Of a stretch of DNA of 64,000 bases, positions 8,251 through 64,000 are shown piece by piece. Positions within the stretch are counted from its first letter, which is position 1, and every line of letters starts with the position of its first letter. A model generated the notes under the pieces. That model worked only from the letters and a program-made list of their open reading frames with translations. It did no database searches and had not been told where the DNA came from. Both the position numbers and the translations under genes were made by a program. Source of the DNA: Phoronis australis (taxonomy: Eukaryota; Animalia; Phoronida); contig NMRA01000086.1 in NCBI GenBank assembly GCA_002633005.1, positions 124,001 to 188,000 on the forward strand, given 5' to 3'.

Positions 8251-8700
8251 TAGACAGTGACCACCATCTCTAGCTGACTAGAGGCAGTGTAACTCCTATA
8301 GGAGCTTCATACACCGGAAGCTTTTAAGCGAATTATGCCTCACACTGACTAAAACATCTAAGTCACATTTGTTATATACCTTTTGCGATAACTGGCCTTT
8401 TATACACTGCGTATGCCAAGGGATATGACGTCATACCACCTGCTGCGTGCAGTGTTGAAAATGGCGAGTTTCCAATTTTGAGAACTTTAGGAGGGACTGC
8501 TCGAAAAAAGCTTAATAACGTAAATAACGGGAATATTTCTTCGAGTTGGAAGGAATTAAACACATCGACAGCCTCCCGCTACGCGCAACAGTTATTTATA
8601 ACAACGTGACCTTGATGTTTTAGTCAGTGTGAGGCTTAATGTGCCGAAAAGCTTCCGTGTATGAAGCTCCTGTAGGAGCTACACCGTCTCTCGTCAGCTA
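8251..8700. mobile_element. Palindromic MITE family A, copy 1 (long imperfect TIRs)
   Basis: 8271-8375 (tagctgacta...gcctcacactgactaaaacatc) is inverted at ~8600-8700; a related copy lies at 9584-10068. Confidence 0.8.
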
Positions 8701-9099
8701 AACAGTCACCATCTATCTTGCCTTGTGAGTGCGAGCTTTTGTGTGAGGTGACCATACTGTTGAGCAGTACTCTAGGTTATTCCACAAGCAAAGATTTTGC
8801 AAGTTTTATATTATCTGTTGAATGCCTACGCAATGCATCGCCTATGTACGACACAGGCATAGGTCTACGGGCTTGTGCCTTGCTTCACCTGGCGAGTCGC
8901 GGTAAACGTGAACAAAAGAGAGAAACCGGCGAAAACGGCATCGGAATAATACCGATATTTGACAGCATGGTGCCTCAAATTTGATAGTATTGAATAATGG
9001 AATATTTAAACAACAGATGGCACCCGAAGGCGTAATAAAATAGCTCTAAATTACTTCAGAGATGTACAAAATCCTTGGCAATCCGGAATTCACTTCGCC

Positions 9100-24200: not shown

Positions 24201-27200
24201 CTTGACATTTAAGGCATCGTCAGTGGTTTATGTCTGTCCAGGCTCTACACCAGAGGTCACTGTTTTTTTCAATGAATAAAATCAACTGATTTCTTAAACC
24301 TTGAACACATGGCAATCAGTGGTAATGTCATTCTGGCCATTTAAATGCTGTCTGTTGGATCAAAGAGTTACAGACGAGGTATTATTGGTTAAACAATGTT
24401 TTTGTATAAGCTTCATTTGTTATTTTTTTGGAATGTAGCTGCATATAATGTTACCTAAATATCCCGACACATTCTCTTGGCAAGAGTTTCCTCAATGAGA
24501 ATGATCAGAGGCTGTGTTTGAAATAGGACATCATACGACATAAAATGGACAACATATGATGTGGTAATTATAGTGCATCACTGTTGGCGTAGCAAGTCAA
24601 CAAGGAAATTTGGGGTTGCGGGAGTGATGTGAATGTGTAGAAATTTACAGAGCAGCCAATTGCAGTGGGTCGTTGCCACAACACTTAAACACTGGTTTCA
24701 TCTTCGCCTTCTGTTAGACTTTTCTTTTCGTCCACTTCAACATTTAAGGCATCGTCGGCAGTTTCTGCCTCTCCACCTTCTACACTAGAGGTCACTTGTT
24801 TCAGGGAGTAAAATCGCCTGATTTCTGCTTGCACCTTGAGCACATGCCGATCAGAAGAAATGTCATCCAGGTCATATTTAAATACCGTCTGCAGGATGTT
24901 TGGTAGTGTTGCGGCTAGCAGTGTGGCAAGTGCCTCCCCTAGACTGGTGATAGAATCCTCACTAAACACATCAATTGTGGTTGCTATGAGGTACAGGAAG
25001 CCAGCTGTGAACAATATTTGTCCAATGGCAGGTAGCTCGTGTTTACTTAGGGGAAACAAGCTGTATAAAACATTGTAATAGAGATCTCGTGGTATGAGTG
25101 GGATGCCGTCCTTCCTGTAGACAACTAATGGATATTCTAAGGTTTCCGTTGTCTTATCATCAGCATCAAAGTTAGACTCTAGGCGTTCATTTTCTTCTTG
25201 ACAGGCATCAAATATTAGCTTCTTGTAATACAGGTATCGGATTTCAACATTGCCTAGAGTTGTATTCAGGAACTGCCATCCTGCTAGAATAATTGATAGA
25301 ATCGGCATCACTTGCAGATAATTCTTGACGGCACCTCTTACGCTATAGACAATTATGAGTCCCACAATTCGAGATGACTCAATAAACACAAACATTGCAA
25401 AAAGTAATCCCATCACAGACACCACCACTCCCAGTAAAATGCCTAGCAATTTTGCAACCTGATGGCGGCCATATTTTTTCACCAGTTGTCGCGTTGTACT
25501 TTCTTCTGGTTTTCTTAAACCTCTCGCAATCATTTCAAGCGGTAGACAATTTACCAAAGGGAAGAAGTTGAGCAAACTGAATACATAGCCAATAAACCAC
25601 AGAATCCTTACCAGTGGTTCCTTAGGGCCACATTTTTCTTGACATTTAAATAACGCCACTAAGTCTCTAAACCAGAAAGACCAAAAATTGGGGTTGATCA
25701 TCAGTGATAATCGGTGAATCATTTTCCGCTGAATCTTTTTTGGGCCTTGATCATAAGTTGTTTTTTGTCTCAGCTTGGGAGGGAGCTTGATGAATCCCAT
25801 ATAGCCATCATCTAGGGCTAGGCGATCAGTCAGCATGTACAATGGTACACCACTGGCGAAAATCACGGCGGTGACACCATAGGCCACCATGGATATGGAC
25901 CAAAACATGTAGTGTGGATTTGAAAAGAAATTTCCCGCATAGAGTTGATCGAAGCTGAATAAATTCAACAGCTGTCCCGTGATGTTCAACTTTCTCTCAA
26001 CATCCACCAAAAACATGACCTCTTCACTGTACTTGAAGTGAACAACCAACAAATAGATATACATAACAATAGGATATAACAAGATGAAGAAAAGCAGTCG
26101 TCTTATCACTCCAATCACAGCATTGTCGGAATTCATGAGTAGCAGAAACTTGAGCGGACGTGTTATTCGTACTGGAATATCTTTATTGTAAGGTATGTAC
26201 TGGATTCCCTTGTTGACTTCTGCCTTGATCGGTGATGATGTACAGGGCTCAGACCATAGGGGCTCTATCGGCGAAATTGGCTCATTGGCCTCAGACTCAT
26301 TATTTGGGTCTTTACTTTTCAATTTTGTCGGTGTTGTATCAGTTGCACCTTGTTCTTCATGTGTGCTCTGCGTTTTTACGTACTTTGGAAAGTCTACTCC
26401 ATCAAATCCTTTAATGCTTCTGCTTCGAAGTTCTAATTTGTCTAGTTTTTTGTTGGCAATGCTTTTCTTTTTTCTCAGAATGCCATTCGATTCCAGTATG
26501 AAAATCTCTTTTGGCTTGGTAAAGAGGGCAGAAAGTAACAATGGACTGAGTAAAAACACTAATATGTATACCATGATCACAAACCAGTCGTCAGTATACA
26601 ATTCTACATAGTGCCCACATTTCGGAGCCACATGAAAACTACAACAATATGGTTGCGTGTAGTAGAAGTTATGTGGGGTTTTGGCCAACTTGTGATAGCA
26701 TAATGATGAGTTTGGATATATATATGACCCTAGACTATATTGCAAAACGCTCATCAGATGTCTTATTGACTTAATTTTCATGGTACCATTACTTCTCTCA
26801 TTGCACTTAGTGGTTAAGTTCAATGTTAAGTAGCCGACATCACTCGTCAGCATGCCAAGGGAATAGAACTCAAATCGAAAATCTATCTTTAACAGTTTTA
26901 TACCTTCGCTCTTCCAAATCCAAATCCACTTTTTTTTCTCCAGGATGTCTTGAAAACGTGCTTCTGGAAAAATCACTTCATCGGGGAAGTTTAGTGTCAC
27001 ATGAACTATACTGTATTTGTTCTCAAGAATGAGATCCTGTAGAGCCTCTTCAGACTTGTTGGTTACTTTATATCGACATAACATGTTCTCAAGTTTGTAA
27101 GTAGATTCACTGTCATCTTTTACGTATTTTGAATCTTTAAACAAACCTCTACCCCTTTGGCTGTATGCCTCTCTCTGTAACTGCATCATCAGTAAAATCA

Positions 27201-30200
27201 AGAAAATTGTTCTAGCATACATTGTGTGCAGATATCTTGCCTCTCTGTTGCAGTAGTGTTAGCAGTAGTTTCAGCTTGCGCTGTAGCTCTCAGTATGTCT
27301 GAAAATATAGAATAAACTGGTCATTTTCGGACTATCTTTTTTTTTTAACAAAAATCATGTGAGTTAAGTCGCAAAAGATTTAAATTATTTTTGTACAAGT
27401 ATTCTGATGAAGTGTATCAGGCTATGATGATGTGCATTATGATGATCCAGAATGATTCACAGCAAATGGATGTTATCTTGTGGCAACTGACCTATACCAG
27501 ACTTCCCACCCCCTTGCGAAAATTCACGTGGCACCCAACAAACAAACAAGATATCGGAGGCAAATATACCGTCGTTGAACGATGTTCCTGATGGAATCGA
27601 TGAGTGTTTATTGGATTATCCAAAAAGGCTGTGACAAAGACAACAGGTGGTGCTTTTTAGCAGAGATTCGTACGTTCTTGTATGAGAATTTGTAAAGGCA
27701 AGGATGAAAAAATAAGTATTTGAGGAAAAGTACTTCGGAGTCAGCAAAAATCCGAAGAACCCCAAACGGTTCACATTCACTTGACAAATGGTAAGGTCAT
27801 TGATGCGATATGTTCATATAAAGCTGGGTATGTACCTTAAAGTTGTAATTATCTGTATGATGCCATAGATGTCAGGATACTTTGAACAAAACCAATGAAA
27901 ATTCACCGATGGTTTTATTCTGCCATCTGCTTAATTCCGCCAAATGAAAAGTAGATCTCCGAGTAAAGTAGGTCGAGTCGATAGCACTGTGTATGCTTTT
28001 CTAATCTTTGAGCGAAATATTTTGATTTAAAAACTCTTGGTTCATACCTCAGGTACACACTCGTCTCGTCCTAGACAGTTGGCGCAGGTATGTCTGGGGC
28101 TGTGTCCATGTCAAATCAATATGTGGAAATGGCCGTAATTCTAATTCTTTTTTAAAGCTTCATAAATCCAAGTATCATGTTTGAACAACTACAAAATGAG
28201 CTCTCTGTAACTCTACAGGCAAAGTGTAAACTAGAGTTTCTCGACGAAAAGTTATTTAACTGTTTATTTTTTCTAAACAGCAGCTCGAACAAAGCTTTGA
28301 GTTCAGTAATCCAGTGCCCCTTCTGTGCCGATTGAATCTGTCAATTTTGAGTTCAGTTGAATGCTAGCCTTCGGGTATATCAATAACAAAAAATGTTCCT
28401 CACTTTTGCTACGAAAGAAAACAATGTCAATTCAGACAAAATAAATGAAAAATGTCCTTAAAAACAACAATGACTAATGCTGGGTCCAGCAGGTGCCAAG
28501 GCAAAAGGGACCGAACGAGTGCAACAAGGGGGGTGTCAAAATCAAATAGGCTTACAATATAGCTAACAAACTGAAAAGTACGTAGTTTGGAACAAGTGTA
28601 TTAATTTGTGTCTAGCCTTCGAGTAATCAAGTAACATTGCCAAGTTCATCTGCTCGTGTGGCCGTCCACACAGTTTGGTCCATCGTTTACACCTTCAACA
28701 TCACCTTTCCAGTTAGCAGATGTCCAAAAAGCGACTGGATAATATTCTCGAGCTGCATAACAGCACTCAGAAATACACGACATAGGTTCACTGTTTCACC
28801 ATTCTTATAGCACAATTTCTTGAGCTATAAACTAAAATAAGCTTTACCCGACAACATGTTGTTTGTTGGGTAAAATGGTGGCTTGGAAACACAGACGACG
28901 GTGTGTCAAGAATGCTATGTTCTGATTGGTCAGTTAAGCTGACAGTCAAAATCTTGACGATAGGTCAATTGCTATTTCATTATGGCAATTGGTTAGATGG
29001 ATACTCTTAGCTTAGACTTTGTTCGGATAATGGCTGCCTACACAGACATGCTGTACTATTGTGGACGTGAAGGCTAGCAGCAATGTTGCACGAACTGTTC
29101 AAGTTGTATCTTGTAAAGTGATTTGTGCTATTTGAAAAAGGTAAAATTTAACTTTGGATATTTACCATTATAAAACTAGTCTCAATATGTTCCTTGTTAA
29201 GATTGAGGTTAAGCACCCACATTTGGGTAAGCACCCACCCCCAACTTCTTGAAATTTCCAATTTAGATTTCTATCTCTCCACGGTTCCCATAGGCCTGCC
29301 AAAAATGAATGTAAGTGCCCATTGCGTTAACCTGAATGTTTAAGGTAAATACCATGGTGTTAACATGGACAAAAACATGTGGCTCTAATTCCCATCGTAA
29401 GTTATGAATAAGACACATATTGTCAATGGACCTGTAATGGATATTAACTAAACGACAACAGGGTTCAACACTTAGAGAACATTGGTTGAATAAGTAACAT
29501 AGCAATATTAAGCTGCTTTCTACCTCTTTTGATGTCCAAAAGCACTTAAGCCCTTTGTGCTGTCAACTTAATTCAGAACTCCTCAATTCTTTCCCAAGTC
29601 CAACCTTGATTTCATCTAAATTGTAGTCATATTCTCTGCAAAAACATTTACAAATGTATTTTTATCCACTTGCTGAGCCAACTCTCAATGTGTTTATAAA
29701 ACCAGTATACCAGGGCCGCACTTTGTCAAAGATTTTATCACCCGGTCATAGCTAAGACTGTACTGGCAAACGCCACTTTGAACTTTTTAAAAGAGTGGAA
29801 ATGTTGGAACTGATGTAAAGTTAGTAATTTTTCAGACTTCACTAGCCAGTTTAATGAACTGTCTGATAATTAAAAGTGGCTAAGATTGGACTGACCTTAA
29901 TGAAACAGGCCCAACCTATCTGCTCATTAGCAGATTTGAAAGTTCACATGCGAACATTAACATAGGTTGTCAAAATTAACCACTATTTGCAATGGTTTTC
30001 AGTACATTCAAAAGTGGCCTATATATGAAAGCAGAACAGGTTGAACATGCGCTGGTTTGCCTATGACATTTGTCCTTAAGCATTAATTTATGGACATGCA
30101 TGACCAATGATCAGCTAATTTTGATGTGAAACTGCAGTAGCCAGACGGGTGTCCTAGGACAGAGGTGATCCTGCATTTTAAGGGGCGTCTAAATTACCGG

Positions 30201-33200
30201 AGGTAATTGAGAACCATACTTTCTGCAGCTGCCACTGAGTAAAAGGCAGCATTATTCAGTGGAAGGAGTACGTTATCATCTTTTCTGGTTAATTTAGACA
30301 TGTAAAATACAGGATAATACACCCCCTAGGGTATATCTTCTACATGAAGATTTTGAGGGTGCATGCAGTTAAATCGCATTTAAAATCTGGAGCAATTAAG
30401 GCAAATACGTGGGAAACAGGTAGAGACCATTCCAGGTTGTGTTGTGCTTTACCTGACATGACTGAAGATATTGCAGATATTGGTAAAAGTTGAGTAAACC
30501 TAGTCCCGCTTCAAAATGGCTTCCAGTTTCACTGAATAACGTGCATTGCAGTTTTTCAGTGAAAAATGGCTCTCGGCAGCCATTTTGAAGAGGGTCCCGT
30601 TTACTCCACTTTTACCCAGACATTTGCACTTATTCCTTGGTTGTTATTTTGAATTCATAATCCTCATTGAATAAATGCCATGATGGGAATGCTCAAATTT
30701 TATCCATTTCCCACTGACAATGCTTTGAAAATTGTTCCATTACAGGTCTAGTTGACCTATACCTCTTACTGGTACCTCGTCATCTTGATGAAGCATGCAA
30801 ACAACATTATTCCAGACAGCTACATAACATGCAGGCTGTGATGCTCTTGTGTTCATGTAATGGCTGCTAGTGTTCACAGGCAATAACACATGTTATCAAG
30901 TATATAAATAAACCTCCCAGGGAGATTGACCTTTTTACCTGACCTCTGTGCTTTCTAAGCCTTCATGCATTGTGTACATTCTGGTGTAAGGGCTGCACCT
31001 GCACTTAACGGATGATATAACAGCTTGGAAATCTGATGGTGCTTGCTTTTACTATGAATGAAATAGTCTTTCACCTATTTCTCAACCCAAGATTACCAGC
31101 ACTATAGCTTTCAGGCCACTTAGTCCAATAATATCATTTGGTAATTTCACTTAGCTTTTTTCACATTGCAATTAAATTTCTGGTATTTATTTTGCTAAAA
31201 TTTCGGTATGTTCCTGCCTGTAGATAGTACCTTGCATTCTTTCCTATGAAAAAGTCTTTTCACTGTAGAGCACACTATATGGTAGACAAGCAAAATTTTA
31301 GTTTTCCCTTTTTTCAAAAGACTAAGTGCCAAATCATGGTTTTACCATGTTAAAGTTCTTAACCATAACTCCAATCAAACATTATTTGGAAAAATGTGGA
31401 CATTGATGACTAGGTTTAAACACCTTGAAAATTGAAGATCAATGTTAAATTTTGGCAATTAATATTTTTATGTACATAAATTAGTGAGGTTTCACCACAA
31501 CTTAGATATAGTAATTATTGGTACATTATGCGTACAAGATGTACTGCTCGATGGATGTGCTATGTATTTAATCTGATTTCCCATGCTTTTCATCATTGAG
31601 GCTGATATATTAGATCATGTGTATATCATATCGATCTTCGATCCAAAAAAATAAGTATTTATAAACATGTAATATTGTAAAATATGGCATGACTAATTTC
31701 AGAACTCACTGGTTACTCTCAAAGACCTTTCCCACTGCTTCAGAAGCAATACCAAAGCTTCGGTCAGTGGGAACATTTAACTTCGGTCTTTTATCGAAGT
31801 TAATAGTGCTAGTTAACTCTGAAGTTTAGAGGTGGATTGAACAGCGAAGTGTCGGCGCTTCCCTTTAAGGAGAACCCTTAAAGTCCTTGTTGCAAACTGC
31901 CCATGTGATTCTAGTATCGGAAAATACTTACTACATAAAATCTTATTTTCGACACCCTTTCTTTACATTCTTTTCGCCTTTCTTGCCAAAAGCGATTTTT
32001 CAACCGTATTTGACCCTTTTCTTTGAGCGTATGATTACGGGTTGTCATCGGTTATTTCCGTACCCACATTTCCGGCTCATCAGTTCAGGAACTTGTCCTG
32101 AACGCCTTTTTTTCCTTGTAACTGAATGTGCTATGGCTTGCTCGAAAAGTCTTCATTATATTGTTTTATTAGTAATATATCGTGATTCGTTTGCATATGT
32201 AGTGTATTTATAGTTTGTAGTTTGTGGTCGTTGATTTTTTTTTGGAATGTTACGCGTACTTAGTATGTTAAAATAGCATTGGTGTTTAGTTCCTTACGTA
32301 GGCCGGTCGAACCTAGGAACCAATATGGGTCGAACCTATTTTTTGCAGTTTTATTTTTTCCTCGTTTTGAAATAGTACTTTGCTATCATCGGAAAGGTAG
32401 TACATTCTACTCAGTAAAAATCGAAAAAGTATCAAAATCGGGGCAAGCACTGTAAAGTTATTGCAGGTTTTGTGGCGCAATTTGGGTCACTTTGTTTGGA
32501 TCGCGTCGGCCATATTGAAGGACAGCGGGATGAGTTACGAGTTTAAAACTTTGTGTAAATTGTTTTCGCCAACAAATTACGGTGACATTTAGTTAGACAT
32601 AACTTTACTTACTATTCTGCACGATTTAGCAGTGTTCACCAAATTTCAGCCTCGCAGTTGTTACTCATTAAGTGATAAATGTGCTCACAATTCCCGTAGG
32701 ACTTCGTCTCATTTCTGGCGGCACCTACAATGTCGACTTTTGCTGAACTGAAAGGCATGTTCAATCGGCTACTTTGTAATTTGTGAAGATTTAACGTTGA
32801 TACATTTTGACAAACGTTGCTACAAAAAAGAAACTCTGCTCAATTTTCGTGTTTTTTGTGTTTGTGGCCAGCGACCAGTTAGGCCTAAGGGTAGTCTTGG
32901 CGCAAAGCTGCCTCCTGTTCAGTAACGCTGAGACCTCGCTAAAAAGCAAGACTTCGCGAGAATACGTGAGATTTTGCTGTGAATTTTGAATAAGAGCACG
33001 TGACTTTGACTAGGTTTTAGCTAGGTCCTAGCGTAGGTCCTAGCGTCTACTGAACGCACGCCTGTATAGGCCTACTAACAAGCTGTATTTTGACTATAGT
33101 CTTCACTGGTTGCTGGTGACTGAGGCTAACTAAAGTCTGCCGCGGCAGTGTTACACAGGACTAACCAGCCCGTAATTTCATGCAAGTATCTGAAACTACC

Positions 33201-36200
33201 CTTGAATATATGCAGCATTTATCATTTGACCATTTTACTTCGACAAAACAGCTTGCAACCGCATGCATTTACCGTTCGCCAGTGTCTGGTCTCGATCCGC
33301 ACCGGGTCCGATAGGCTGCGGTCCCGAGTCTGGCAAAATAATTTCTGTCAAAATTTATTCGCCACATTTCTTCAGCAAATTCGATAAAATTGTCTGTAGT
33401 TTGATTTTATTAAAATTAAGGCGCGCTGTCGATCATTTTATCCCCGTTTGCTGGCTGGTAACAGTACAGGCACTGCTCGAGTCGCACTGACGGCGTTTTC
33501 TCGGCCTGGGTTCCTGAATGAATTGTACTTCCGGGTTCGCGGCAAGTTCAAAATGGCGGTGTTTCTTCGGGTGCGAATCGTGAGTGGCGCGTTCATTTAA
33601 ACTGTTTTCGAGTACGGATGGTGTATTAGTTATGGGGTAGGTACTTCTTGGATCCTTATAACATCTTCTAACCATGTAATTACAACGCGTGAGAGAAGGA
33701 CTTTAACTACAATGCCATTGGAGTTATCAGAGATGTCACTGCATTTGCCAACAGCGGGTGGTAACTGGTTAATATTTGTTAATATTTTGTCCCAATAATT
33801 TTAATTTCAGCAGTAGAAGCATTCTGTTTCAATTTGTCCACGTGCTCACTGGATTCCTTCCTTAAAAAAATCGCTGAACATTTTGTGTATGCAAAACAAG
33901 TTCCAGCCAAACATCACACTGCCCTTACATGGATCTGCTGCTAGCAACAAGACTCCAATTTTCTGTTAAATGTTGTCAAATGTCGTAGCTCATTGTACAA
34001 GTCAAGGTCATATTGACGCTGCCTTGCGATAACTTCCTTGAACTATACTCCGAAGTTGATGTGAAACACTAATGCTCAACTTCGAGGTAAACCACAGTTA
34101 ACACTGAAGCTTCAATTGTAGCAATTAATTAAAGCCATCTTTGTGGCTCAAGTCAGTGGGCAGAACATGTGTAAAAGGTACCGGAATAGCTATAACCAAC
34201 TCAAGTCGAACAAGTTTAAAGCAGGTTGTTTCCAGCAGTATTAAGTCTTAGCTGATAGTATAGACTCACATCATAGGGAAGGGATGTATACATGGTTCCT
34301 GTGTCTATTTTTGTCATCGATATTTCTCACTAGTGATACATTACACGCGATTACTAGTATGGCCAAGCAAATCCGAAATGGCATTTGGAAGGAGAGCGAA
34401 ACAATCATGCTGCTTGAGGTGTGGAGGGACGTCAGTGACCTTACAAGGGTGGCAGGAATCTTCACTGGAACATAGAAATCTTTCAGTATTGATACTAGCC
34501 AACTTATAACATAAGTAAGGGTACTAGACGCGTATTTTGAAATATCCATGAAAAGAATCTTACGTTGACACCCTAGCCAGTGGAGATTGGGCAACTTGAT
34601 TGGTTTGTGTACCACAGAATCTGCTGGTTTAGATCAAAGACACAATGCTGTTGTGGTTGATTAAACTGCCTCAGGCTACTGATGTTATTGTTCTCTAGGT
34701 AGTGAGACCACCATAAACACATTTGGGGTTACAATAGTATTTTTAAATTTTCGTTTTGAAAGTTTATAAATAGCATATTTGAATAGTTAATTAATGAATT
34801 TTGAAAATTGGACAAGAAATGTAACTTTTACATTATAGAACTTTTGTGTTACGTTGCAATCATAACATGTTCCTCATTAATTCTGCTGGGTGTGTTATAT
34901 AATTGGGCCAATTACCAAACCACCAAGCAGCAGTTGGATTTCGAGATAAGCCAAGTGTCGTCCTGCATTTGTTGGCATAGGAAATATTAGCTTCCATGGC
35001 GCATAACAGTGTAGCAGTGCGAAGGTTTACCCTGGTATATGTTGCCACACCCAAGCCATGTGGAATGCTAGCCGATCACCTGTATATATACTATTGAGCA
35101 AGCACATTGAAAGATGGTTCTTTTCCACCATCCCCCAGTTGTCTTTAGAAGTGCAGTTGAAACTGACTTAGTGCAACTCGCACTACCTCTCAAACCGGTA
35201 TCAAAAATGGTCGTCGCGGTATCAACTTGCTCCGTGTCAGTCGTGTTTACTCACATACTTGTGCCGATCAGCTGTTCCATGTTAGTTTCACTGTGACAGC
35301 TGTCTCCCGTGTAAATGCGGCCATTGAATGCTCACCTAGATCCACTCATTATCCGCCAAGTCCACACAGCTCATTTCCATGTCTTTCGTGTTGCTAGCAC
35401 AAGTCTAATCAGATGGAGATTAATTGCAGTGGGAATACTATCCTTATCAGTGAAGCAGCTGAAGTCTCTAATTAGGTGTAAACCTAACCAAATGGGTCCC
35501 CTGTTATGGTTTATAATTTTTGAAAAGGGATATTTTTGTTCTAGATGTGTGTTCAATTAGACTAGTAGTTTTTATGATGCATTGAAACTTCGAGGATACT
35601 TTTGTTTGTAAGGCTGGGCTAAACACTTAAGTACTGCAAGTTAAGTGCAGTTCTAGCAACATATTTATATTCAAGGAGCAGTGTTTCAAATGTTTTTCCC
35701 GTTTCGATAAGTGCAAGACACACTTTGTGGGTTATTAAAGTTTAAGCCGTATGAATTAAATTTAACGCAAACCAATTTTACCAAATGTTGTTCTTACAAT
35801 ATGACATTGATTTTCTTAAACTCACCTTTTGAATTTTTGATAGCGCACCACAAAATAAATGATACCAAACTGGACTTAAAAAAACAAGAAAATACTAAAA
35901 TGTAACTGGTTTATAAGAATTGTCTGCTGATACTCAAAATGAATTACCGTAATCATTCGGGTTAACGCCCATGCTCAGTTAACCGCCCACCCCTACTTTA
36001 GGTGGATTTTCGATTTAACCGCCCACTGCTCAGTTAAGCGCCCCCCTACGATTTTTGAAGATTTCCAGTTAAGCGCCCACCTCTCGGTTAAGCGCCCATC
36101 CCGGACTTTTAAAGAATGAAGATTTAGCGCCCTGTGCTAAGGAAACGGTGATTCCCCGACTTTTACAAAAAGACCGATGATCACAATGAGCGTAACAATG

Positions 36201-45200: not shown

Positions 45201-48200
45201 TAAAAAATTGGGCAACGGGGAATAAATTGTAGTTGCATATATTCAACATCCTGTCAATTGTCTGTTCGTCGTCCATCTGTCATTATCTTTACTTAGCAAT
45301 TGATTTTCTCAAAAGATGCTTTACGGATAATTATGAAATTTTGGTCAGACTTATTTGGTAGGGATGCGCTGCCATCAGTCTGTTTTCTGTTTGTTTTTGT
45401 CAACCGACTAGACAAATTTTGTCTAAACTTGAAGGTATGAATCGGGGTTGCGCTGACACCAGTTTGAATGGAGTCCGCTATAAGCCTTACATAGGATTCT
45501 CTGTTGGCTTTCTTTGTATCAGTTATTGTTACATCGTGACAGATTTTTGTTAAAACTTGACTTGAAGTTTGATGACTGAGAGATGCCTTGTCAATTGTCG
45601 TATTACAATTTGAGCATGTAATACGAGGATGCTCTGCTATCACTTGATCTTCACGTAGATTTGACTACAGTCATACCCGCTGTTGGCCATTTTAGTTTTT
45701 GGCAGGAGTTTCCTTGTCCGGTGTTAATTATTCAAACGGCTTGCCAAGTTTTGATCCCGCTTTACTCAAAGATACGTTGGTGTGTGCGGTCACCAGATTA
45801 TTTTCAAGCAGATTTAGCTACTGTAGCATTCCATTTTGGCAATTTTAGGTTTTCTCAAGGCATTGCTTGTCCATCAATTATTGTCAAAATTACTAGAATC
45901 CTGGCTTTTTTTGATGAAAATTGACACTGGTTTGTGGCTGGGAAACACCAGCACCAGTTGGATGAGACATACAGGGCTGCTATAGCACCACCTGTTGACC
46001 TTTTTATGCGCCCACATATTGATATATGGTCGTTTATTGCCGTCATGTCCATCTGGGCGTCCGGCGTCTGCAGCTTTATCTCCTAAACCCCTTACAGGAT
46101 CTTGATGAGATTTGGCAGATGTGCTTTTATCAAGATAACGACGGATGATGACAAATTTCAGCCCTTTCCGACTTCGGGTGTACCCCCTAGTGGCAATTTT
46201 AGTTTTTTCTTACGCTCACCTTTGTATCTTTGGAGGTCCTCAACGTATTTTCACAAATTTGGAATATAGGCGTTTATTAGTGAGATGACAGTATCCTCTC
46301 GTTTTCGGATGGATTTGCCGTAGTTTACGCCACCTAGTGGCCATTTTTATTGTTTTCGAGTCTTTTTTGGCATCCGTCGTGAAAATTGGCATGTATGTCC
46401 TTATTATGAAAAGTATGGCTGACGAAAATTTTCCAAAGTGTTCAACTACTGTGGCGCCTCCTAGTGGCAGTTTTTTTTTGCGTCCATGGCTGTATCTCCT
46501 AAACCGTTTGCAGGATCTTTACTAAATTTAGCAAGTGCATTTATATGATGTTGACAACAGATGACGACGATGACTTTCACAGTGGCAATTTTAGTTTTTT
46601 ACGTTTATCTCTGTATATTCAAAGGTCCTCAACACATTTTTATAAAATTTGGGATATAGGCGTCTATTACTGATATGACGCTATCCTTGTATTTTCGGAT
46701 GGATTGGAGGTATTTTGCGCCACCTAGTGGCCAGTTTTACTGTTTTCGAGTCTGCTTTTTGGTGTCCACTCCTCTATCAACCAAACTGCTTTAAGGATGA
46801 TTGTGAAAATAAGCGTGTATGTTCTTACTATGAAGAGGATGGCTAACGATGATTTTCCGATGCCTTCAACTACTATGGTGCCTTCTAGTGGCAGTTTTGT
46901 TTTTTTTGCGTCAACGGTTTGCAGGATCTTTACTAAATTTAGCAAGTGCATTTATATGATGCTGACTACGGACTACGACGATGACTTTCGCACAGATTTT
47001 TACACCAGTGTGCCCCCTAGTGGAAATTTTAGATTTTTAGGTTTATCTCTGTATTTTCAAAGGTGCTCATCGGAGTTTCATAAAATTTGGAATATAGACA
47101 TCTATTGGAGAAGTGACGCTATCCTACCATTTTCAGATGGATTCAAGGTATTTTGTGCCACCTAATGGCCATTTTTACTGTTTTCAAGTAGGAGGACACA
47201 TGGCTTTAGGTATTTTTAGAACCTTGGATCAAAGATGATAATTCGTTTCAGTGTGTTAAATGTGAAAATTTCAGTTTAATTTGAATTTTAGCCATCTTTA
47301 CTCATCAATGTCCCCGATTCGTCAGTTTTAAGTAGTGCATGGCACTGATACACGTTAGGGAGACGTACTGTGATGTATGTACAAAATTCTCTACTTAACT
47401 GGGAAATTTGTGCAAAAATGATTGTCAAAATGTTCATTTTTCAAACGTTGATTACGTTTTGCAAATAATGGTATTTTTAACAAAAATATTATTTTATGAC
47501 AACTGCACACTATAATCCAAGCTGGTAATGGACTAAAATGTCCTTAATCTTCACTTTTTTAGAGAAATTCACTTGCCGATCATATTGTGTGCTAAATAAG
47601 TAAAGAATTGCCTTATTATCATTTGAGTCATTTGACTTCAGAACACTGCACTGTGATCACCTTTGAATTGATAAGTATCATGATTTAGCGCCTGGGCCAG
47701 CTTATCCAATGTTCTTCCCCCATTGGCCATCACAATTCATTGATAAATAAATGTTTATGGTGACAGATGCTAGCTGTGAATGTTTACAATATGGTGGAAT
47801 TTACTCCTTGGGTTCATAGTCATGTGCCTCATTGTTTAAAGTCCATCCAAGCACATCATTTGGCTGAACTACATTTTTAAAAATCCATTTTTGGAAATTT
47901 CTTACAAACAATTGAAGTTATTAAAGTCGTGTGTAAACAGTCTACGCTGTAGTCTTTATTGAGGATAAGAGTCAGAGATACATTATGTTAAGCAAAAACG
48001 CTAATCATCCAGATGGTCCTCACAAAAATAGTCGTACACCATCCCTTAATGTGTGACGTGCAAATTAAACAGTATTAAAAGTGACAAAATTGCTCATAAT
48101 TCTGTTCTTGAGAATGTTGTTTTACAGTTTTATGGTACATTACGGTATCTAAGCTATAATCCTGGGGCCCGTTTCAAGAAAACTGACTTAGCTAACTTAA

Positions 48201-51200
48201 GGCAAATCTTAAATCTCAGCCAATTTAAGATCAAACTCAGTTAAATTTGTCTCAAGTCTGCTTCAGGAAGGAGATCTTATGTTTGACTTAAGTTTTTTAC
48301 TAAAGTGAACGTAAGTTAGTTTCTTGGAACGGTCCCATGACCTTTCGTTTTTTTTGTTGGTGTAAAGGTTCTGAAATTAATACATTATCAATTATCAATA
48401 TGTATTAAAGAATTTCCTTGATCGTTTAGCCCTGCCTGCTTTAACACATGACTTTCTGCATGGTTCGGAGTAGTTTCTAGTTCTAGTCACATAAGATTTA
48501 GCTGAGGGTTGGATGCTTAGCATAATGACAATTTTTGCAAATGCGACCTGGCAAAATTTACAGGTCACCAAACAGGAAGTGGGGTCTCCAAACCTTGTTG
48601 GCAAGGGCCGAAAATGAAATAGACGAGATACCTGAAGTGGAAAGGCAGTGAATTCCGCAAATATCCGCCATATACCACGTGCCCTACTGACGGCCAATTT
48701 CCTCTTTTGGGCCCAATATCGTACACACCTGAGATGTAGGCCCACCCCCCTGAGGCAGACGAGCACAAGCTATTCCAATTTTTTGCCATCTGTTTACTTC
48801 CTTTAGCATTTTAAATGCATGCTAGGAAGTATTATGGGGACTTCATGGCAACCTGGGATTTTTACCACATGACATTCTCATGACAACAAAAATCAAGTGC
48901 TCTTTTACTGTTTTTACCAACTGTCTGTCATTCTGAGGAAGTCCAATTGTCAGCATACATAGCAATTTGTCTATATCTTCTGTTTTTGTGTTTGATGACT
49001 AATAGATGCATTCAACAAATGATGCTAAAATATTTCAAAGATCTGCACTTACCTTGATGTCTGGGTTATTTTTGAATTACAGCATTTCACACAGTGTATA
49101 GCAATGAACAAAGCCAGCAAGAAGTCATGTACCATCATGTTATGAATATAAATTTACCATTCAAATGAGCTTGGAACGCTGGATAAATCGCGTCATCCGG
49201 TCAAGTTGTCCAGTCTGTCAGCAGTCTATTTGACGTGTTGACGTTCTTACACAAGGCATGTACTGTATTGCTGAGCCCATACAAACCAGCACTTCGTTAT
49301 CCTCTGGTGATTGCAGAGGTTATATAGTAATCGTTCCCCGCTTTTTATCTTCTTTTGAGTTATCTGTGCTCATGTCTTATTGTGAGCCTGCTTGTACATT
49401 CCAAGTTTGTACTGTTAGTGTTGATGTGACCCAATTATATTTTTAACTTATTTTTGTGCTCTCAATAACATCACAGTGCGGTTGACCTCAGACTACTCGT
49501 ATTACATGCACTGCTGACCTCAAATGTGAAAAGGTGGTTGTTTGCTCATTCTACGATCATGAGTTTTTGTTCTGTCTACACTGTGTTGCTGAATGTGCTA
49601 ATGTAACCCCAAGCATCTACATAACAATTATTATTGCTATATGAGTGTTTCTTACTTAGGGTGATTCAACTAAGCTTCCTTAAATTACAAGTGTCCCTTT
49701 TACACACAGATTACAAAATAATACAAATATCCACTTATATTGACGTTTTATCTTGTAACTGTAAAAATTCCTCAGTTTGGAACACAAAAAGCAGAATTTA
49801 AATTGTTATTTTTAAAGATTTTTTGTTTGGTGGTTTGTGATACCTGATGACAATCAGAAAACATTTGTTAATAACTATTTTTCTTTGGTTATTTGACACA
49901 ATGAGATTCTATAACCCTACCATATAGTGATGAACATGGTTATTATCATACACCTAATATAAAATACACTCCAGGTATACTTTGCTTACCTCAAGATAAC
50001 AACTGTCACCCATGGCGCATCCATCATACACCAAGGTATTCTACATGACATAGGCCTGACACCTTTATATTTCGGTTGTTTACTTAACTGTTGGGTCATG
50101 AAAGATCTTTTTGGTCATGATTCTATTTACCTTTTCATGATGCATAGAAGATGAATTTGAAAACCTTTCAGTTCTGAGCTTGAAGATGCATTTTGCTCCA
50201 TTTTAAGCTGCGGAAGAAATGAAAATCGAGTACAACCGGCTTTTACTGTCATGAAATCTTTCTTTTAATATTATTCATTACCATGATAGGAATCTATTTC
50301 CGTTACTTACAACAACATCAAAACTATCAGCTACTCAAGAAAATGACGCATTGCCTGGTAATTGATATAGAATACTGTCATGATAAGGAATATTACGAGA
50401 CCAATTTAATGAGGGTGAAAGGTGAAATGCAGTTTTAATTATTGTATTTGTGACTGCTTCTATGGTCTGTAGTGGCAATTTTATTATTTTCTTTACATTT
50501 GCCTCAGTATATTCGAACTTCATTGATGGATTTTCGTGAAATTTTGGCAAATAGGTTTCTATTTAGGAGGTAACGATGCTCTTTCATTTTCCTTTGGATG
50601 CGATGTATTTTTGCACTACTCAGTGTCGATTTTTATATTTTCGAGTCCATTTTTGGGCATCTGCCTCTTCATTTGCCAAATTGCTTAAAGGATCGCTTAA
50701 AAGGCTGACAAATGTGTTGCTGACACGAAGGCGGAGGATAACCTTCATTTTTGGATGATCTGACCACTGTGGCGCGCTCTGGTTCTGATTTTGTCTTTTT
50801 TGCATCCTTGGCTGTATCTGATTACTCCATTGATAAATCTTTGTAAACTTTTGCAAGTGTTATCCCTTAAATACTGCCTACGTCCTTTGGACGGTTGTAG
50901 CAACCGCTGCACCCCCTTGTGGCAATATCAGTTTTTCGTTTGCCTCTGTATTTTCAGAGTTCATTGACAATTTTTAATCAAATTTGACTAACAATTTTCA
51001 GTCGTAATGGCGATAGCAGCATTCCATTTTGGGATGGATTTGATGTATTCTGTGCCATAGTGGCCATTTTTATTGTTTATGAATTGGGATGGAATAGGTT
51101 TTGCTTTGCTTTCCGACTAGATGTTCAATAGGTAAATCACTTTCTGAAAGACCTAGGGAGTCTGGTGAGTCAGACGTTTCTGCCCTCTCTAAGGGCTGTG

Positions 51201-54200
51201 TTCACTGACTAGAGGCTTACAGCTCCCAGCAGTGTATAACCTAATTCTAGAACCAGGTCAACCTGAAGCGGGAAATACAATCAGTGAACAAGGCCCTTTG
51301 AGAGAGGGCAGAAACGTCTGACTCATCAAAGTCACGTTTTTCAGCAACTGATTTACCTATTGAATATTTTTTAGTTGTCTGCCTTTGAATTCGCCAAACC
51401 AGTCAGAGGATCATTATGAAAATGAGCAGATGTTACATTACTACTGACAAGAGCATGACTGACATAGATTTTCAGATGGGTCCAACTACTCTGGTGCACC
51501 TTGTAACATTTTTTGCATGTGTGTGTCTATATCCTAAATCCCCTTCCAATATCTTTTGGAAGGTTGGCAATTGTATTTCCAATTAACTTAACAATGGATC
51601 GATGGTTAGGCAACCACTTTGCCTCCCAATGGCAATTTGTTGTTTTCACATTCCCCTCTGTAGTCCGTTACCGATGTTCAAGAAATTTAGAAAACTACTA
51701 TCTGTTCGGGGACAAGGACATCTTCCCTGGTCCTGCCAAATGTTACAGATTCATCAGTATGTATTCTACGTAAATTTAGGGCCTAAAAAATAAGGCATAT
51801 GTATTTTCAAGTGCTACAGATTATCCCAAAAATCAGTTGAAAGTTAAAATTATTTTTAAATTGTCATTGTTTCGAAGCACCAGACTGGTTAAGATCAAAG
51901 CAGAATATACTGGATGGAAATAGTCAAGAATGCAAGATCCGACCAATAAGACGTATCCTGAGTACCAGTGCATAACACAATTTGCCTACAAAATTTACCT
52001 TTTGTGGTTGATCAACTGCAGTTACTTTGTGAAGAACTGACCAATCAAAAATCCGCTTACTTGGTTTTGCACAGTGGGATATCATATGTTTTGGAAATTG
52101 TTTTAAGGTGCCAAGGGCGGAATTTCGGAGACAAGTTTACTGAGGAATTAGATTACATTCAGAAAACGGGAATGCCATTTGCCACGTTTTGTTAGACACA
52201 CCTCAACAGTAAGAACCCTGCAACACCCGGAGCATGGCTCAGCAATTTAATAACAATTCATCGGGATTTTTGGAGCCTTGGTAATTTAGGGAAAAATCAA
52301 CCATTACAGCAAAAGCCGAAAAACATCGGATACGTTCAATGTATTCTGTGCCATACTAATACCTTGGAGCACACTATTAACACTGTAGTAGTGGGTTGCT
52401 CCTGTTGTGATGTGCTATCAATACCTTTGCAAAAAGTTACTTAGTAGCGGTCAAAATTTTTGACTTACATGCAGTATTCCTGATGTCACACATGGTTGAC
52501 AAATGAAATTCTGTTTTGTCAAAATTCCTCCACTAAAATAAAGATTAGGAAATTTTTACTATCCTACATTACCTTTGAAAATGATCTGACTTCACTAACA
52601 TTGTGGTGAATAGTTGTGTGGTATTGTTATTCTCTATTTGCTAGTGAAATTCTAGTGCTGTATTGCTGTGCCATTAAGCCCATGTGTGTCTGCACAGAAC
52701 TGTGCTAATATAATTTAGGCACAGGTGCTAATATGTAATCCATGGGTAAAAAAGGCCTCAAAAGAAGGCATTATTTCTGATATAGGTCCATGGGCCTAAA
52801 ATTGCGAAATATGGTAATACAAAACTATTTACCTAATTTTTTGAAAATACACAAAGGAACTCCCAATGATTAGAGGCAAGTGTAAAAAATGCCATTAAGA
52901 TGCACAGCTGTGGTCAAAACAGGTGCGGCTATATGCGAATTAATGTATTGGCCTATGCAGGGGACATTACCTGGGCTCATGTGAAACTTAGGCACATGCG
53001 CCAATATGTGAACCACTCGGGTAAAAAGGCTGCAAAAAGGCATTATTTCAAATGTAGACCCATGGGCTTAAAGGCATGGCAATATGGTATGAATGTGTTT
53101 CCTAACATATAATGTAGGGATTTTTTAACATGCAGCATGAAAACTATCAACTTGCTTTTTATTAAAAACTGCTTGACAATAACAGGGAAACTGGTTACCA
53201 ACAAATGAACATACAACGAAGACAGTTTCAAGGAAATTGTTTTTAGTGACATTATTAGCAAGAAAAATAATTTTCGGAGATCAGCCCTAAAACAGAATTG
53301 AACTCTCAACCTCTATTAAGCAAATCTTACGCTAACAAGATTTGCACGCAAGTGGACGAAAAAGCATGTCGCTTAGGCATTGGGGTAACAAAACCCCAAA
53401 ATATTAGCGTAGGATTTGTCTCATGTCTGCCGTCATTAAGTCCGACACTCTGCTGGTGGAGCCAAACCTCTCTTATTATATGGCAGAGTAAGCTAAATGT
53501 ATTTAGTAATGTCTGCACCCTTGATTTCAGCAAATTACTGGCAGTCAACGGTGAGAATTGGTGATTCCTAATAAGTTCATAACACAAAAGGATTTTGTTG
53601 TTTTATAAATCTGGTCACAGGTAATCACTGCAAGAAGTCAGTATTAACCAGTAATAATCAGCCCTAAAACCAAACACTTGCCTTTAAAGTGGAAGAAGCT
53701 TCTCTCAAAGCACAACTAAATACAAATTCATAACATAACGTGTAATTAAGTTTGAAACTGATAAAAATACACTCTAAAGCAACTACAGTAATTAAGTATA
53801 AAATGTAGCAAGACTTCTACCATATTTATCCAGTTAGCCAGATATCAAAAATAGCTGAAGGACAGTGGATTAAAGGATTTCGAGGTTTCAGTTGAGTCGA
53901 CGTGATGACGGTCACTCCTTTGAAAAGTAAACGTGTGATTAAAAGGAAAGTGATTATTGGAGCTTCATATGAAAATGTCACCCTTAAGTTCCCCCACAAT
54001 GTAACCCTTCTGTAAAGGGTTAATACCCTTCAGTTCCCCCACAATGTAACCCTTCTGTAAAGGGTTAATACCCTTAAACCGTATAAAATTCCTTTTGAAT
54101 ATAATTTGAATAAACAACCCAATTGGCAATATATTCTCATAAACATAACAAACTGCAGTAAAACGTAAACATTTTTGTTGAAGAAAATGAACGGGATCCC

Positions 54201-57200
54201 TTCGTATAGTTTCAACCCAACAGGGTATAAGCCTTATAGAAGAGATCTGTTCAGAAAAGCCACCCTTCGGTCATGAAACTGACCTTGAAAAGATAACCTG
54301 TCAGAGCTGCACCTCCCACGTGTGGGATTGGGGCCTTACAAGAATTAGACAGCAGTTAGTTCAACATCTTCAGTTTGTGCAGCAGTTTTTGTTTCTTCGT
54401 TTTGAGACTCTGTGCCTAAGTCCTCAGCTGCAGGTTCCACCACTTTATGTTCTAATTCAGAGGTCACCTGTCCATTCAGCAAATAAAGTCGCCTGATTTC
54501 CTTGTGAACTTTGAAATTGTGGCTATCAGTGGTAATGGGATCCTGGTCAAATTTAAACACTGCCTGTAGGAAGTTAGGTATTGTTGCTGCCAGGAGGGTG
54601 GTAAGAGCCTCCCCTAGACTTGTGATAGAATCCTCACTGAATACACCTACTGTTGTTGCTACCAAGTGTAAGAAACCAGCTGTAAACAGTAGTTTTCCAA
54701 TGGCAGGCAGCTCATGTTTACCCAGGGGAAAAAGGTTGAACAACACCTTGTAATAGAGATCTCGTGGTATAAGTGGGATGCCGTCCCTTCTGTATACAAC
54801 CAATGGATATGCTGGAAATTGCAGAAGCTTTTCATCAGGGCTGAACTTAGACTTCAATCTGTCATCTTCTTGTATACATGCATCGAAGATTATTTTCTTG
54901 TAGGAGAGGTATTGCTTTTCAACGTTGCTTAAAGTCGTCTGTAGGAAATGCCAGCCTGCCAGAATAATTGATACAATTGGTATGATTTGTATGTAGTTTC
55001 GTACGACTCCTCTAACTGTATAGATGATTATGAGCCCAGCAATACGAGATGACTCCATAAAAATAAAAATGGCAAACAGGAGTCCCCATAAGCTCATTGT
55101 TACCGCAAAAATGATGGCTATCAATTGTGCGAGCTGCTGGCGGCCATATTTCTTTACCAACCGTCTTGTTTCACTTTCTTCTGGTTGTCTCAGAGCTCGC
55201 GCGATTATATCAAATGGCAGACAGTTTACCAGTGGCAAAAAGCTAAGTAAACTCATAATATATCCAAAGAACAACAATATCCTCACCAAAGATTCCTTGA
55301 CACCACATCGTTCATGACATCTAAATAATGCAACTAATTCCTTGAACCAAAAACACCAGAATTGAGGATCAATCATCAACGATAATCTATGCACCATTTT
55401 TCTCTGCAGCTTTTGAGTATCTGGATCGTACCGTGTTTTTTGTCGTAACCTGGTAGGAAGTTTGATGAAGCCCATGTAACCATCATCCACAGACAGGCGA
55501 TCCATTAGTATAAACAGGGGTACACCAGTGCTGAAAATGGTAGCTGTGATACCGTAGGCAACCATGGATAAGGTCCAGAATATAAGGTATGGGTTCGAAA
55601 AGACAGTTCCAGCGTAAAGATGGTCAAAGAAGAATAGTTCCAACAAGTGGCCGGTGATGTTCATTTTTGTTTCAACATCCGTCAAAAACATGACGTGTTT
55701 GCTGTACTTGATGTGGACTACCAACAGATAGACGTGAATTAGTATTGGGTAAAACAATACGAAAAACAATAGTCGTCGTATCACCCCAAGTACAATGTTA
55801 TCGATATTCAATAACAGTAGGAACTTTAACGGATGTGTTAGCCGGACTGGAGTGTCTTTATTGTACATGATATATTTGATACCACAGCAGACGTCTGCTT
55901 TGCCTGTTGATACTGCTGGTTGGGAACACAGCAGCTCTATCGGTGATAATTGCTCACTAGAACTAGGATCTTTGTTTGCTGCTCTTTTCAAACCACTGCG
56001 CGTCTTGTCAACTGCACGTTGTCCGTCATCCGCCCTCTTTTTGACATAGTTTGGAAAGTCTACCTCTTCATCCCATTCATTGTCATTCTCTTGAATGTTA
56101 AGTGTCCGAAGCATTTTTTTGGCAAAGCTTTGCTTTCGTCTTAGTATGCCATTTCTTCTTAGTGTGTAAGTTTCTTTTGGTTTGGTGATGAACACAGTAA
56201 GTAACAAGGGACTGAGTGAAAACACAAGTACGTATACTGTGAAGACAAACCAGTCGTTTGGATGTAACTCAACAAAGTGTCCACAGTTTGGAAACAGTTC
56301 ATTACTGCAACAGGTTGGCTGGGCGTAGTAGTTATCCATTGAGTTGGCTAACTTATGATAACACAGGGACGAATTGGCTGGTATGTACATCCCTAAGCTG
56401 TGCTGTAGAATTGATCTCATTTGGTGTGGCGACTCTATTTTTTCAACTCCACACTGCTTTGGATCACATATTGTGGTAAAATTTAAGGTCACATGTTCCA
56501 CATCGCTAGAAAGCGTGCCTAGGGAGAAGAATTCGAACCGAAAATCCACTTTAAGCAATTTCACGCCTGCAGCGTTCCTAATCCAAATCCACCTGTCCAT
56601 TTGAAGGATTTCTCGGTAACTGGTTTCTGGGAAGATTGCGTCAGAAGGGAATAACAGTTTCATGTAGATTATGTTGTTTTTCTCGTACTGAACGAGTTTC
56701 TGCAAATCAAAGGTGGATTTGTCTGTAAGTGTGTAGTTACTGACATCCGAGTTTGTCATATTTATTTCTTCATCAAAGTGTCCATCTTCCACGTATATCA
56801 TATCTGTAAACAAGTCTGTTCTCACTTGGCTACTGACCTGTCTCTGGAACCCAGCCATCAGCAGAAAAGAAAATATTGCGGCGGCATGCATTGTACGTAT
56901 TTTGTTGTCTCTAGTTAAGCAGAATATGGAGCAGGTTCTTATTTATTGTTTATCTGTTTTTACTTCGAAAAGGGAACTTCTGCTTCACCTGAAATATAGA
57001 ATAAACACCTATTAAGCAAATGCTTGCTGCCAGTTTTCATTTTATTGGGGGTCTTACACATGTAAGGGATTTGAATTATTACTCAGCAACCTTTTTGCCA
57101 AGTAGTGACTTTGTTGAATTGTTGTTATGTCAGTGCTCATAGCTTTTGCTTTTGTGGCGTGATGATAGGCTATTTCAGAAGTCAGGTTTTCAAGGACTAA

Positions 57201-63148: not shown

Positions 63149-63154
63149 GTAAGT

Positions 63155-63620
63155 TGTGATGGTGGTGGTGTGGTGCCATGGGTGATGGTGTGTGGTGGTC
63201 AGGCAATGGTGGTGAGGTAATGGTGGTTGGGTGATATTGTCAGTGTGGTGATGATGGGGTGGTGGCAGATGGTGGGGTGGCATAGGAGTGATGATGCTGG
63301 GGTGGTGGTGGTGGTGATAATAGTGGTGGTATTGGGTTGGTGGCAGTGTGGTGGGGTGGTGTGGGTTGACGGTGGTGTTGTAGTGGTGATGTTGTGGTGT
63401 TGTGGTGGTGATGTTGTGATGGTGATGTTGTGGTGGTGATGTTGTAGTGGTGTGGTGGTGATGTTGTGATGGTGATGGAGTGTTGTTCTGGTGATGGTGA
63501 TGTGGTGGTGATGTAGTGGTGGTTTGGTAGTGTTGGTGGCAGTGTGGTGGTGGGGTAATGATGGTGCTGTTGGTGTCAGTGTGGTGATGGAGTGTTGTTG
63601 CAGTAGTTGTAGTTCTGGTG
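63155..63620. repeat. Degenerate (GTG/GTT/GAT)n low-complexity repeat at the start of ERCC3 intron 14
   Basis: GT-rich triplet repeat directly after the exon 14 donor. Confidence 0.92.
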
Positions 63621-64000
63621 TGTTCACCTATTGTTTTGCCTGTGCTTGAGTAGAAGTGTACTGGCACTCGAGCAATGAAGACACAGCTGTGACTGCCGCA
63701 ATGAGTATACACTTGAGCTGTTGGCATTGTATCATAGCTGTGAATGTTATGAAGGAGTAAAGGCACTTTTGGTTTTGATGAGGTGATGAAACAAATGAAT
63801 GTTTCTTGGACATGCTGTATTTTGAGACCCATATTTTTTGTTGTATTCCATTGCAAAATATAATTTTTAGGTAACTTTTTATTTTTTCATAAATACACCT
63901 AACTTTCAACATAGTATGTTATAACACTTATTTTACCCGTGATAGAATTGACGCCGTGAATTATACATTTACTTTTACCAGTCTGTTGAGGAGTGTTTCC

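Follow-up and report, generated by a model that had tools for sequence, protein, structure and literature searches.

Three intact, related genes stand in tandem inside a single intron of XPB/ERCC3 in the phoronid Phoronis australis, and very probably they are genuine host genes for a multi-pass cell-surface protein. They were examined within a window of 64,000 nucleotides (assembly GCA_002633005.1, contig NMRA01000086.1, positions 124,001 to 188,000), to which all coordinates below refer. Judging from predicted structure and residue conservation, we favor, at a rough probability of 0.35, a protein family that may act as a channel opened or tuned through its ectodomain. The three open reading frames (ORFs) run on the minus strand. 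ORF1 (protein P0001, 24685–27222, its entire coding sequence in one exon) and ORF2 (P0002, 42470–45007) each encode 845 residues from the ATG, and ORF3 (P0003, 54345–56891) encodes 848, with the stop codon included in each interval; their C-termini read ETSV, ESSL and LTAV, respectively. Full-length pairwise alignments give 58–64% protein identity and 70–73% DNA identity. Coordinates and alignment thus bear out the original prediction, made from this DNA alone, of three same-strand frames without coding introns that can be aligned throughout.

The host gene lies on the plus strand, where Pfam identifies Helicase_C_3 (13874–14128, E 1.5e-16) and ERCC3_RAD25_C (62864–63217, E 1.2e-14). The predicted intron between them, at 21699–62879, spans 41,181 bases in phase 1 with GT..AG borders, and the XPB frame appears to continue unbroken from WGLMLLD before it to EVHTIP after it, so that all three ORFs are nested antisense in one intron, as had been proposed. 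Gene nesting inside long introns is common in animals, and we see no functional tie between these genes and XPB. In the six frames of the window, a family profile matched the three ORFs and one other element only, a degenerate tandem duplicate covering the final ∼65 codons of ORF1 and the DNA downstream of them (23811–24360, minus strand, 550 bases, 77% identical, with stops and frameshifts). This copy is likely to sit within the 3' untranslated region of ORF1; the bin over it (23820–24483) has sense-strand RNA depths of 2, 0 and 1.32 in the three runs described below. An assembly gap of 743 N (36614–37356), of uncertain true size, lies in the intron between ORF1 and ORF2 and could hide an extra copy.

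Nei-Gojobori estimates for the three paralogue pairs give ratios of nonsynonymous to synonymous divergence (dN/dS) of 0.22, 0.26 and 0.26 at dS of 1.05–1.18. These values are far from 1 and agree with the purifying selection that the original prediction had read from the intact frames. A chance origin is excluded, as three 2.5-kb frames have stayed free of stops in DNA of 38–41% GC at dS ∼1.1. Among the 21 differences between RNA reads and reference that were listed inside ORF2 and ORF3, with 53 further rows beyond that listing, 11 leave the residue unchanged, 10 replace it and no stop arises.

All three genes are transcribed at a low level in their own sense, ORF3 in a sample-specific manner, although some of the reads may stem from more similar paralogues at other places in the genome. 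Three raw RNA runs (X1–X3), all from one study and all labeled with the same species, were used, 18–19% of each being read, with likeness thresholds of 90% for the ORF1 stretch and 95% for the ORF2/ORF3 stretch. The runs are stranded: at the XPB joint 21001–21578, 9, 13 and 1 first mates fall on the minus strand and none on the plus strand. Minus-strand depth over ORF1 is 1.13–2.74, 0.45–0.91 and 0.71–2.06 in the three runs, compared with 0–0.45 in the XPB sense; sense-strand depth over ORF2 is 0.93–3.5, 0.14–2.85 and 0.41–1.27. ORF3 reaches 2.25–8.74 in X3 and 0–0.56 in X1 and X2. Several non-repeat bins of the XPB intron have a depth of 0. The stranded RNA check on expression therefore finds sense reads over all three genes, with ORF3 expressed in one run of three.

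A pyrimidine-rich motif ending in AG occurs three times on the minus strand of the window, each time ahead of an ORF, and never on the plus strand. It marks predicted splice acceptors at 27299–27316 for a 5' untranslated intron of ORF1 (76 nucleotides upstream of the ATG, identified by the motif), at 45079–45096 for ORF2 (71 nucleotides upstream, with depth dropping to 0–0.07 in bin 45046–45586) and at 56989–57005 for ORF3 (97 nucleotides upstream, with X3 depth of 3.99 giving way to 0.43 in the bin that follows). This shared motif suggests that each gene likely consists of a non-coding first exon and a single coding exon; the RNA joints listed include no spliced reads connecting these acceptors to an upstream exon.

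A profile of the three window proteins, compared with 1.84 billion representative proteins, returned 22 relatives at E ≤0.001, six of them at ≤6e-63. Five carry species names, all of them annotated as "uncharacterized" or "hypothetical": XP_064635065 from Lineus longissimus, XP_074649456 from Tubulanus polymorphus, OWF48738 and OWF54686 from Mizuhopecten yessoensis, and ELT93422 from Capitella teleta. The remaining 17 bear no species name. The two nemertean proteins are the closest named relatives (E 2e-116 and 1e-110, ∼25–28% identity), with the same layout and an ETxV tail; the bivalve and annelid proteins are more distant (E 3e-9 to 4e-4) and differ from the window proteins over residues ∼340–560. 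An Argopecten irradians relative, XP_069112515, was added by a word-indexed search with residues 595–835 of P0013, which matched two scallop proteins. The suggestion, in the original prediction, of uncharacterized relatives in other marine invertebrates is thus substantiated for nemerteans, scallops and an annelid; similar uncharacterized proteins may also be present in corals and oysters. Word-indexed searches with P0001 and with alignment A2 gave no match, and the latter missed its own members, so these blanks are uninformative. An ESM Atlas search with P0013 gave no usable match, and pattern scans, which reach close relatives only, detected none in viral contigs (22 pattern matches), metagenome contigs (548) or prokaryote genomes (251).

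A quick tree was built from 24 of the 48 stored proteins after removal of near-duplicates and short fragments. It unites the window proteins in one clade (support 100 in the Shimodaira–Hasegawa-like approximate likelihood-ratio test) within a nine-member group (91) that includes the nemertean proteins, and sets those of the bivalves and the annelid apart on a branch of their own (100). This topology is consistent with local tandem duplication within an old family, an origin that would fit the three genes. Seven unnamed relatives of 521–637 residues (P0025, P0043–P0048) form a cluster of their own; the short relatives are either a natural form restricted to the core or gene calls lacking upstream exons. 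Two scallop members (P0013, P0031) carry a precomputed Pfam label, PF28478.1; the local Pfam copy gave no PF28478 match, and P0013 has no hit there. No literature was found on the family, PF28478 or six member accessions in a search that covered neither supplements nor subscription journals; one paper, PMC8195603 (TRADD-N), is, in the part accessible, unrelated to the family. The sequence family is therefore one already deposited as uncharacterized, at least one branch of which has a recent Pfam accession, with no assignment to any characterized kind.

These relatives also bear on whether the ORFs might belong to a mobile element or virus, or be pseudogenes, without a function for the host. 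The single coding exon, the intronic site amid repeats and the decayed partial copy beside ORF1 would be expected of such sequences. We nevertheless consider this origin highly improbable, given the low dN/dS at a dS of ∼1.1, the sense transcription, the acceptor-like site ahead of each ATG and the occurrence of relatives in three named animal phyla. Moreover, no transposase, reverse transcriptase, integrase or viral structural domain was detected by Pfam in the three window proteins, and PHROGs gave 0 families on nine members.

The absence of a known family signature, noted originally, held in every profile library searched. No Pfam family reached its cut-off in any of the three window proteins or in any of the 22 relatives, and no full-length match to a characterized family was found. 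The following candidates were rejected as hydrophobic noise: Pfam SHR3_chaperone on the fragment P0011 (24.8 bits compared to a cut-off of 25), two single-member NCBIfam matches (E 0.002–0.004) among 31 members, and a PADLOC 2TM effector (E 0.005) in one of the 31. A sequence search of the PDB gave no match with P0001, and the profile recovered only rhodopsins at E ≥0.06.

The full-length AlphaFold model (pLDDT 67.7, pTM 0.64, from 31 sequences) is of middling quality; the ectodomain modeled alone scores somewhat higher (pLDDT 76.3, pTM 0.76, 24 sequences). Foldseek found no match at E ≤0.001 for the full-length model among PDB or viral structures; TRP chains head its list at E 0.3–1.8 with TM-scores ≤0.10, and realign with Z ≤4.3. 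With the VIA tool, whose own bar for helical bundles is ∼13 in which unmatched models typically reach 7–8, and which cautions that weak matches attest neither to a different fold nor to a new one, the best Z among 48,161 chains was 9.1, from generic three-helix matches to residues 633–794. This segment dominates the fold searches made with the 845-residue model. Chains of OR/GR, TMC/OSCA/TMEM16, connexin/innexin/CALHM, bestrophin, XKR and GOST proteins do not appear among the matches listed, and are not thereby excluded. For the ectodomain alone, the best Foldseek E was 0.22, and VIA returned eight chains with Z ≥2 and none with Z ≥5, the best being ADF-H/cofilin (Z 2.6, root-mean-square deviation (rmsd) of 4.0 over 87 aligned residues). 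These weak matches are compatible with a fold not yet solved, without demonstrating one.

The predicted protein begins with a signal-like segment, judged by eye, that falls below the 19-residue hydropathy cut-off and is clearer in the named relatives. In ORF1, the ectodomain core (residues 45–212, 26587–27090) is predicted to be alpha/beta and contains Cys175, Cys193 and N-glycosylation sequons. It is followed by the first membrane helix (213–231, 26530–26586), as placed by model and hydropathy, and by the membrane core (341–816, 24775–26202), delineated by DSSP of the model, hydropathy, charge and sequon counts, from which its topology is deduced; all three features lie on the minus strand. 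Family-averaged hydropathy peaks at 225, after the ectodomain, and seven more times at 385, 448, 552, 605, 647, 741 and 773, in line with the seven to eight further hydrophobic segments proposed at the outset. In the model, the passes after the first helix would be 368–397, 436–458, 587–633 (a long one), 635–655, 725–755 and 759–781. Hydrophobic helix 535–561 is likely re-entrant from the cytosolic side because the loops on both sides of it are basic and two prolines in it, Pro555 and Pro561, are conserved. The modeled cytosolic elements comprise a strand pair at ∼473–479, a basic helix with Arg504 and Trp514, the strands of LVVY..DGIPLIP, and helices 656–684, 712–722 and 787–816. Loops 237–365, 462–534, 562–588 and 657–728 are rich in lysine and arginine and loops 400–433 and 752–760 poor in them; a sequon is present in loop 400–433 of all three window proteins and in loop 752–760 of five of six other close relatives. 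Loop charge and sequons together support 400–433 and 752–760 as outer loops and an inner C-terminus. The predicted topology thus has about seven passes with the N-terminus outside and the C-terminus inside; the number would be nine if 535–561 and 587–633 cross otherwise.

In the 31-row alignment, Trp514 and Pro774 are invariant, and a glycine, two prolines and a tyrosine nearly so. Conserved positions are chiefly Trp99, Gly107, Ser121, Cys175, Cys193, Pro227, Arg374-Arg375, Gly476, Arg504, Phe513-Trp514, Pro561, Tyr626-Thr627, Gly630, Tyr663, Lys667, Ile710-Pro711, Pro724, Phe742, Gln/Glu763, Thr767 and Pro774. Among rows with a residue there, ectodomain Trp99, Gly107, Cys175 and Cys193 are invariant (cysteines in 24 of 24). 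The motifs quoted in the original prediction are all present in the three paralogues, and most are conserved only among these three. The invariant positions include no histidine, aspartate or glutamate, a pattern that speaks against an enzyme.

Polar and small residues recur within the predicted membrane helices of the 24 rows: Glu615 (E in 9), Arg618 (K 8, R 3, E 2), Tyr626 (Y 16, F 8), Ser627 (T 18, S 5), Gly630 (G 17), Asn634 (N 14, H 10) and Gln735 (K 16). The last membrane helix carries Glu763 (Q 16, E 3), Thr767 (T 20) and Pro774 (P 24), and positions 763, 767, 770 and 774 share one helical face. It is these polar stripes, conserved on two membrane helices, together with the lack of a conserved catalytic residue, that lead us to favor a channel. 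In the proposed mechanism, a ligand or partner would bind the disulfide-bonded outer domain of ∼165 residues, and the signal would be relayed via the first helix to the membrane core. The polar faces of helix 615–634 and of the last helix (Gln/Glu763, Thr767, Pro774) would border a route for ions or small solutes, formed either inside a single subunit or between neighboring ones. Assembly or gating may depend on the long cytosolic helices and on the strand pair of LVVY..DGIPLIP, and the PDZ-type tail could anchor the protein to a scaffold; the three tandem-duplicated copies would now differ in expression. Every step from ligand to pore in this scheme is inferred. A dimer prediction for residues 335–820, in which the alignment was not used and the fold was uncertain, scored 0.00.

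The same intramembrane residues could instead belong to a solute transporter with an accessory ectodomain, a reading that would also account for the 7–9 hydrophobic segments and for the re-entrant or broken helix with Pro555 and Pro561. Pfam contains no transporter family that matches, NCBIfam offers only the two single-member matches noted above, and hhalign, used to look for an internal (inverted) repeat, gave a probability <1% for seven of seven segment pairs, a weak test since structural repeats are often invisible in sequence. A cleaved signal peptide and a folded ectodomain are uncommon in solute carriers. We regard a transporter as decidedly unlikely.

Topology bears more on a signalling receptor that does not conduct, in which the ectodomain would bind a ligand and the seven-pass core would signal via G proteins or via partners of the loops and tail; its topology would resemble that of G-protein-coupled receptors (GPCRs), while its ancestry is perhaps not theirs. 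With GPCR classes B, C and F the family shares the predicted outside N-terminus and inside C-terminus, a cysteine-bonded ectodomain, a PDZ-type tail and a last helix that contains a proline and precedes a cytosolic helix; the seven predicted passes, the long cytosolic extension after pass 5 and the invariance of that proline just ahead of the cytosolic helix are in keeping with such a receptor. Endings of the class I PDZ type, [ST]-x-[VIL], are present in six of the nine proteins P0001–P0009 (ETSV, ESSL, LTAV, ETQV, ETMV and ETSV) and in nine of all 48 stored. A single coding exon and tandem clustering are also typical of chemoreceptor GPCR genes. However, no 7tm Pfam family matches any of the three window proteins or 22 relatives, and the family differs from these classes in its very long first and second cytosolic loops, the second of ∼125 residues with a membrane-dipping helix, and in having few residues between passes 4 and 5. 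A class B chain, 8hao_R, matched weakly (Z 5.1, rmsd of 9.2 over 161 aligned), but the alignments to class B receptors are of low quality and shifted in register, as when model residues 628–795 fall on residues 277–393 of PTH1R (6nbf_R, Z 5.9, rmsd of 5.7 over 106). The best rhodopsin match (E 0.062) covers 537–621, a generic helix–basic loop–helix. A signalling receptor seems a serious alternative, though a somewhat unlikely one.

Comparison of the paralogues by region shows that dN/dS is lowest in the membrane core (0.11–0.25), with values of 0.29–0.43 for residues 1–90, 0.51–0.61 for the first cytosolic loop and 0.15–0.70 for the tail; no region exceeds 0.70. The folded ectodomain core (91–210) retains 56–64% identity, with a dN/dS of 0.16 in the sole pair with unsaturated dS. 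The N-terminus and first loop are indeed among the most variable parts and the core is conserved, as had been claimed originally, but the most variable regions (1–90, 237–340 and the C-terminal tail) largely overlap segments with pLDDT <50 (18–41, 265–337 and 810–845). Because the variable parts are mostly disordered in the model and no positive selection was seen, the view of a diversifying, ligand-sensing family is unsupported.

A further alternative is a protein of adhesion, of cell junctions or of immune recognition, or else an auxiliary subunit or a scramblase that regulates other membrane proteins and lacks its own pore. Such a role could make use of the disulfide-bonded ectodomain and the PDZ-type tail, and would suit lineage-specific duplication and the sample-specific expression of ORF3. 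The ectodomain lacks the fast evolution of immune receptors, though, and a large conserved multi-pass core with intramembrane polar residues exceeds the needs of an anchor; we consider these roles unlikely.

Among described channels, the family bears some likeness to the 7TMICs (insect OR/GR, GRL, DUF3537 and PHTF), to the extent that the accessible part of their description allows (10.1101/2023.08.30.555482). Shared with them are a long hairpin with a short outer turn running into the cytosol, a kink that leads from a cytosolic helix into one in the membrane, and a C-terminal peak of conservation. Helices 587–633 and 635–684, and the kink at Pro724 between 712–722 and 725–755, resemble the 7TMIC helices TM4–6 and TM7a–TM7b, except that an extra membrane helix follows. 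With the ectodomain uncounted, outer loops of ∼34, 3 and 9 residues compared to inner loops of ∼129, 127 and 72 agree with the loop-length criterion of that class. In contrast, the 7TMIC N-terminus lies inside and the C-terminus outside, and the reverse is predicted here from the signal-like N-terminus, cysteines, sequons, PDZ-type tail and charge. In insect OR-type channels, conservation peaks at the pore and anchor, according to the same portion of that source; the window family is likewise most conserved in its last membrane and cytosolic helices, a parallel by analogy alone. The protein may operate in the manner of OR-type or ectodomain-gated channels, though we place it in no family. The best VIA match, to the fungal ribosome-bound SND3 translocon (9i78_6), superposes three helices over 634–791 (Z 9.1, rmsd of 3.6 over 100 aligned, 7% identity); designed coiled coils and BAR domains score equally well, and the match lies below the bar of ∼13 and covers an eighth of the protein. 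It is a tentative proposal, which we hold to be on the unlikely side, that the family represents a new class of ligand-gated channel with a sensor ectodomain of new fold and no relation to Cys-loop, iGluR/IR, DEG/ENaC, P2X, TRP, TMC and OR/GR proteins.

Several observations weigh against an ectodomain-gated channel. The conserved intramembrane polar residues are equally compatible with packing between helices, a pocket for a ligand or a site of transport, and the outside N-terminus, odd number of passes, last-helix proline, cytosolic helix and PDZ-type tail suit a signalling receptor just as much. The full-length model is of middling quality, expression is low, and positive selection in the ectodomain was not detected by regional dN/dS among the three paralogues. 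In addition, P0025, P0047 and P0048 begin downstream of the ectodomain and first helix; if these proteins are whole, the core can function by itself.

Elsewhere in the window, a gene with at least two Pfam dsrm double-stranded RNA-binding motifs (2775–9045, minus strand, E 5e-7 and 1e-7), which we take to be TARBP2/PRKRA/Loquacious-like, stands head to head with XPB, whose start is apparently at ∼9250; a shared promoter is possible. A transcribed interspersed repeat at 31788–33779 attracts many diverged RNA reads on both strands, with depth up to ∼200. Dispersed inverted repeat copies, 80–91% identical, occur at 37357–38104 and 58072–58861, at 35944–36466 and 59365–59895, and at 11659–12297, and are likely non-autonomous DNA elements. 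Palindromic, self-complementary stretches resembling miniature inverted-repeat transposable elements are found at 9584–9987, 30482–30616 and 51121–51367. A tandem repeat array in an XPB intron (19490–20111) gives rise to spurious Cys/His-rich ORFs. In the next XPB intron, an open frame of 254 residues rich in His, Thr and Pro (63122–63886, minus strand) resembles trinucleotide-rich low-complexity sequence and is probably no gene.

New kinds of receptor or channel at the animal cell surface are seldom found. The family described here is present in at least three named animal phyla, is under selection, has been duplicated within lineages and is expressed in a sample-dependent manner, without a name or function in the records examined. 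As each gene has a single coding exon, it can be amplified straight from genomic DNA for imaging, electrophysiology and cryo-electron microscopy. If the reading as a new class of ligand-gated channel is true, these proteins would add to the sensory or neural receptors of marine animals a class not described so far, ancient in invertebrates and represented here by three locally expanded, differently expressed copies.

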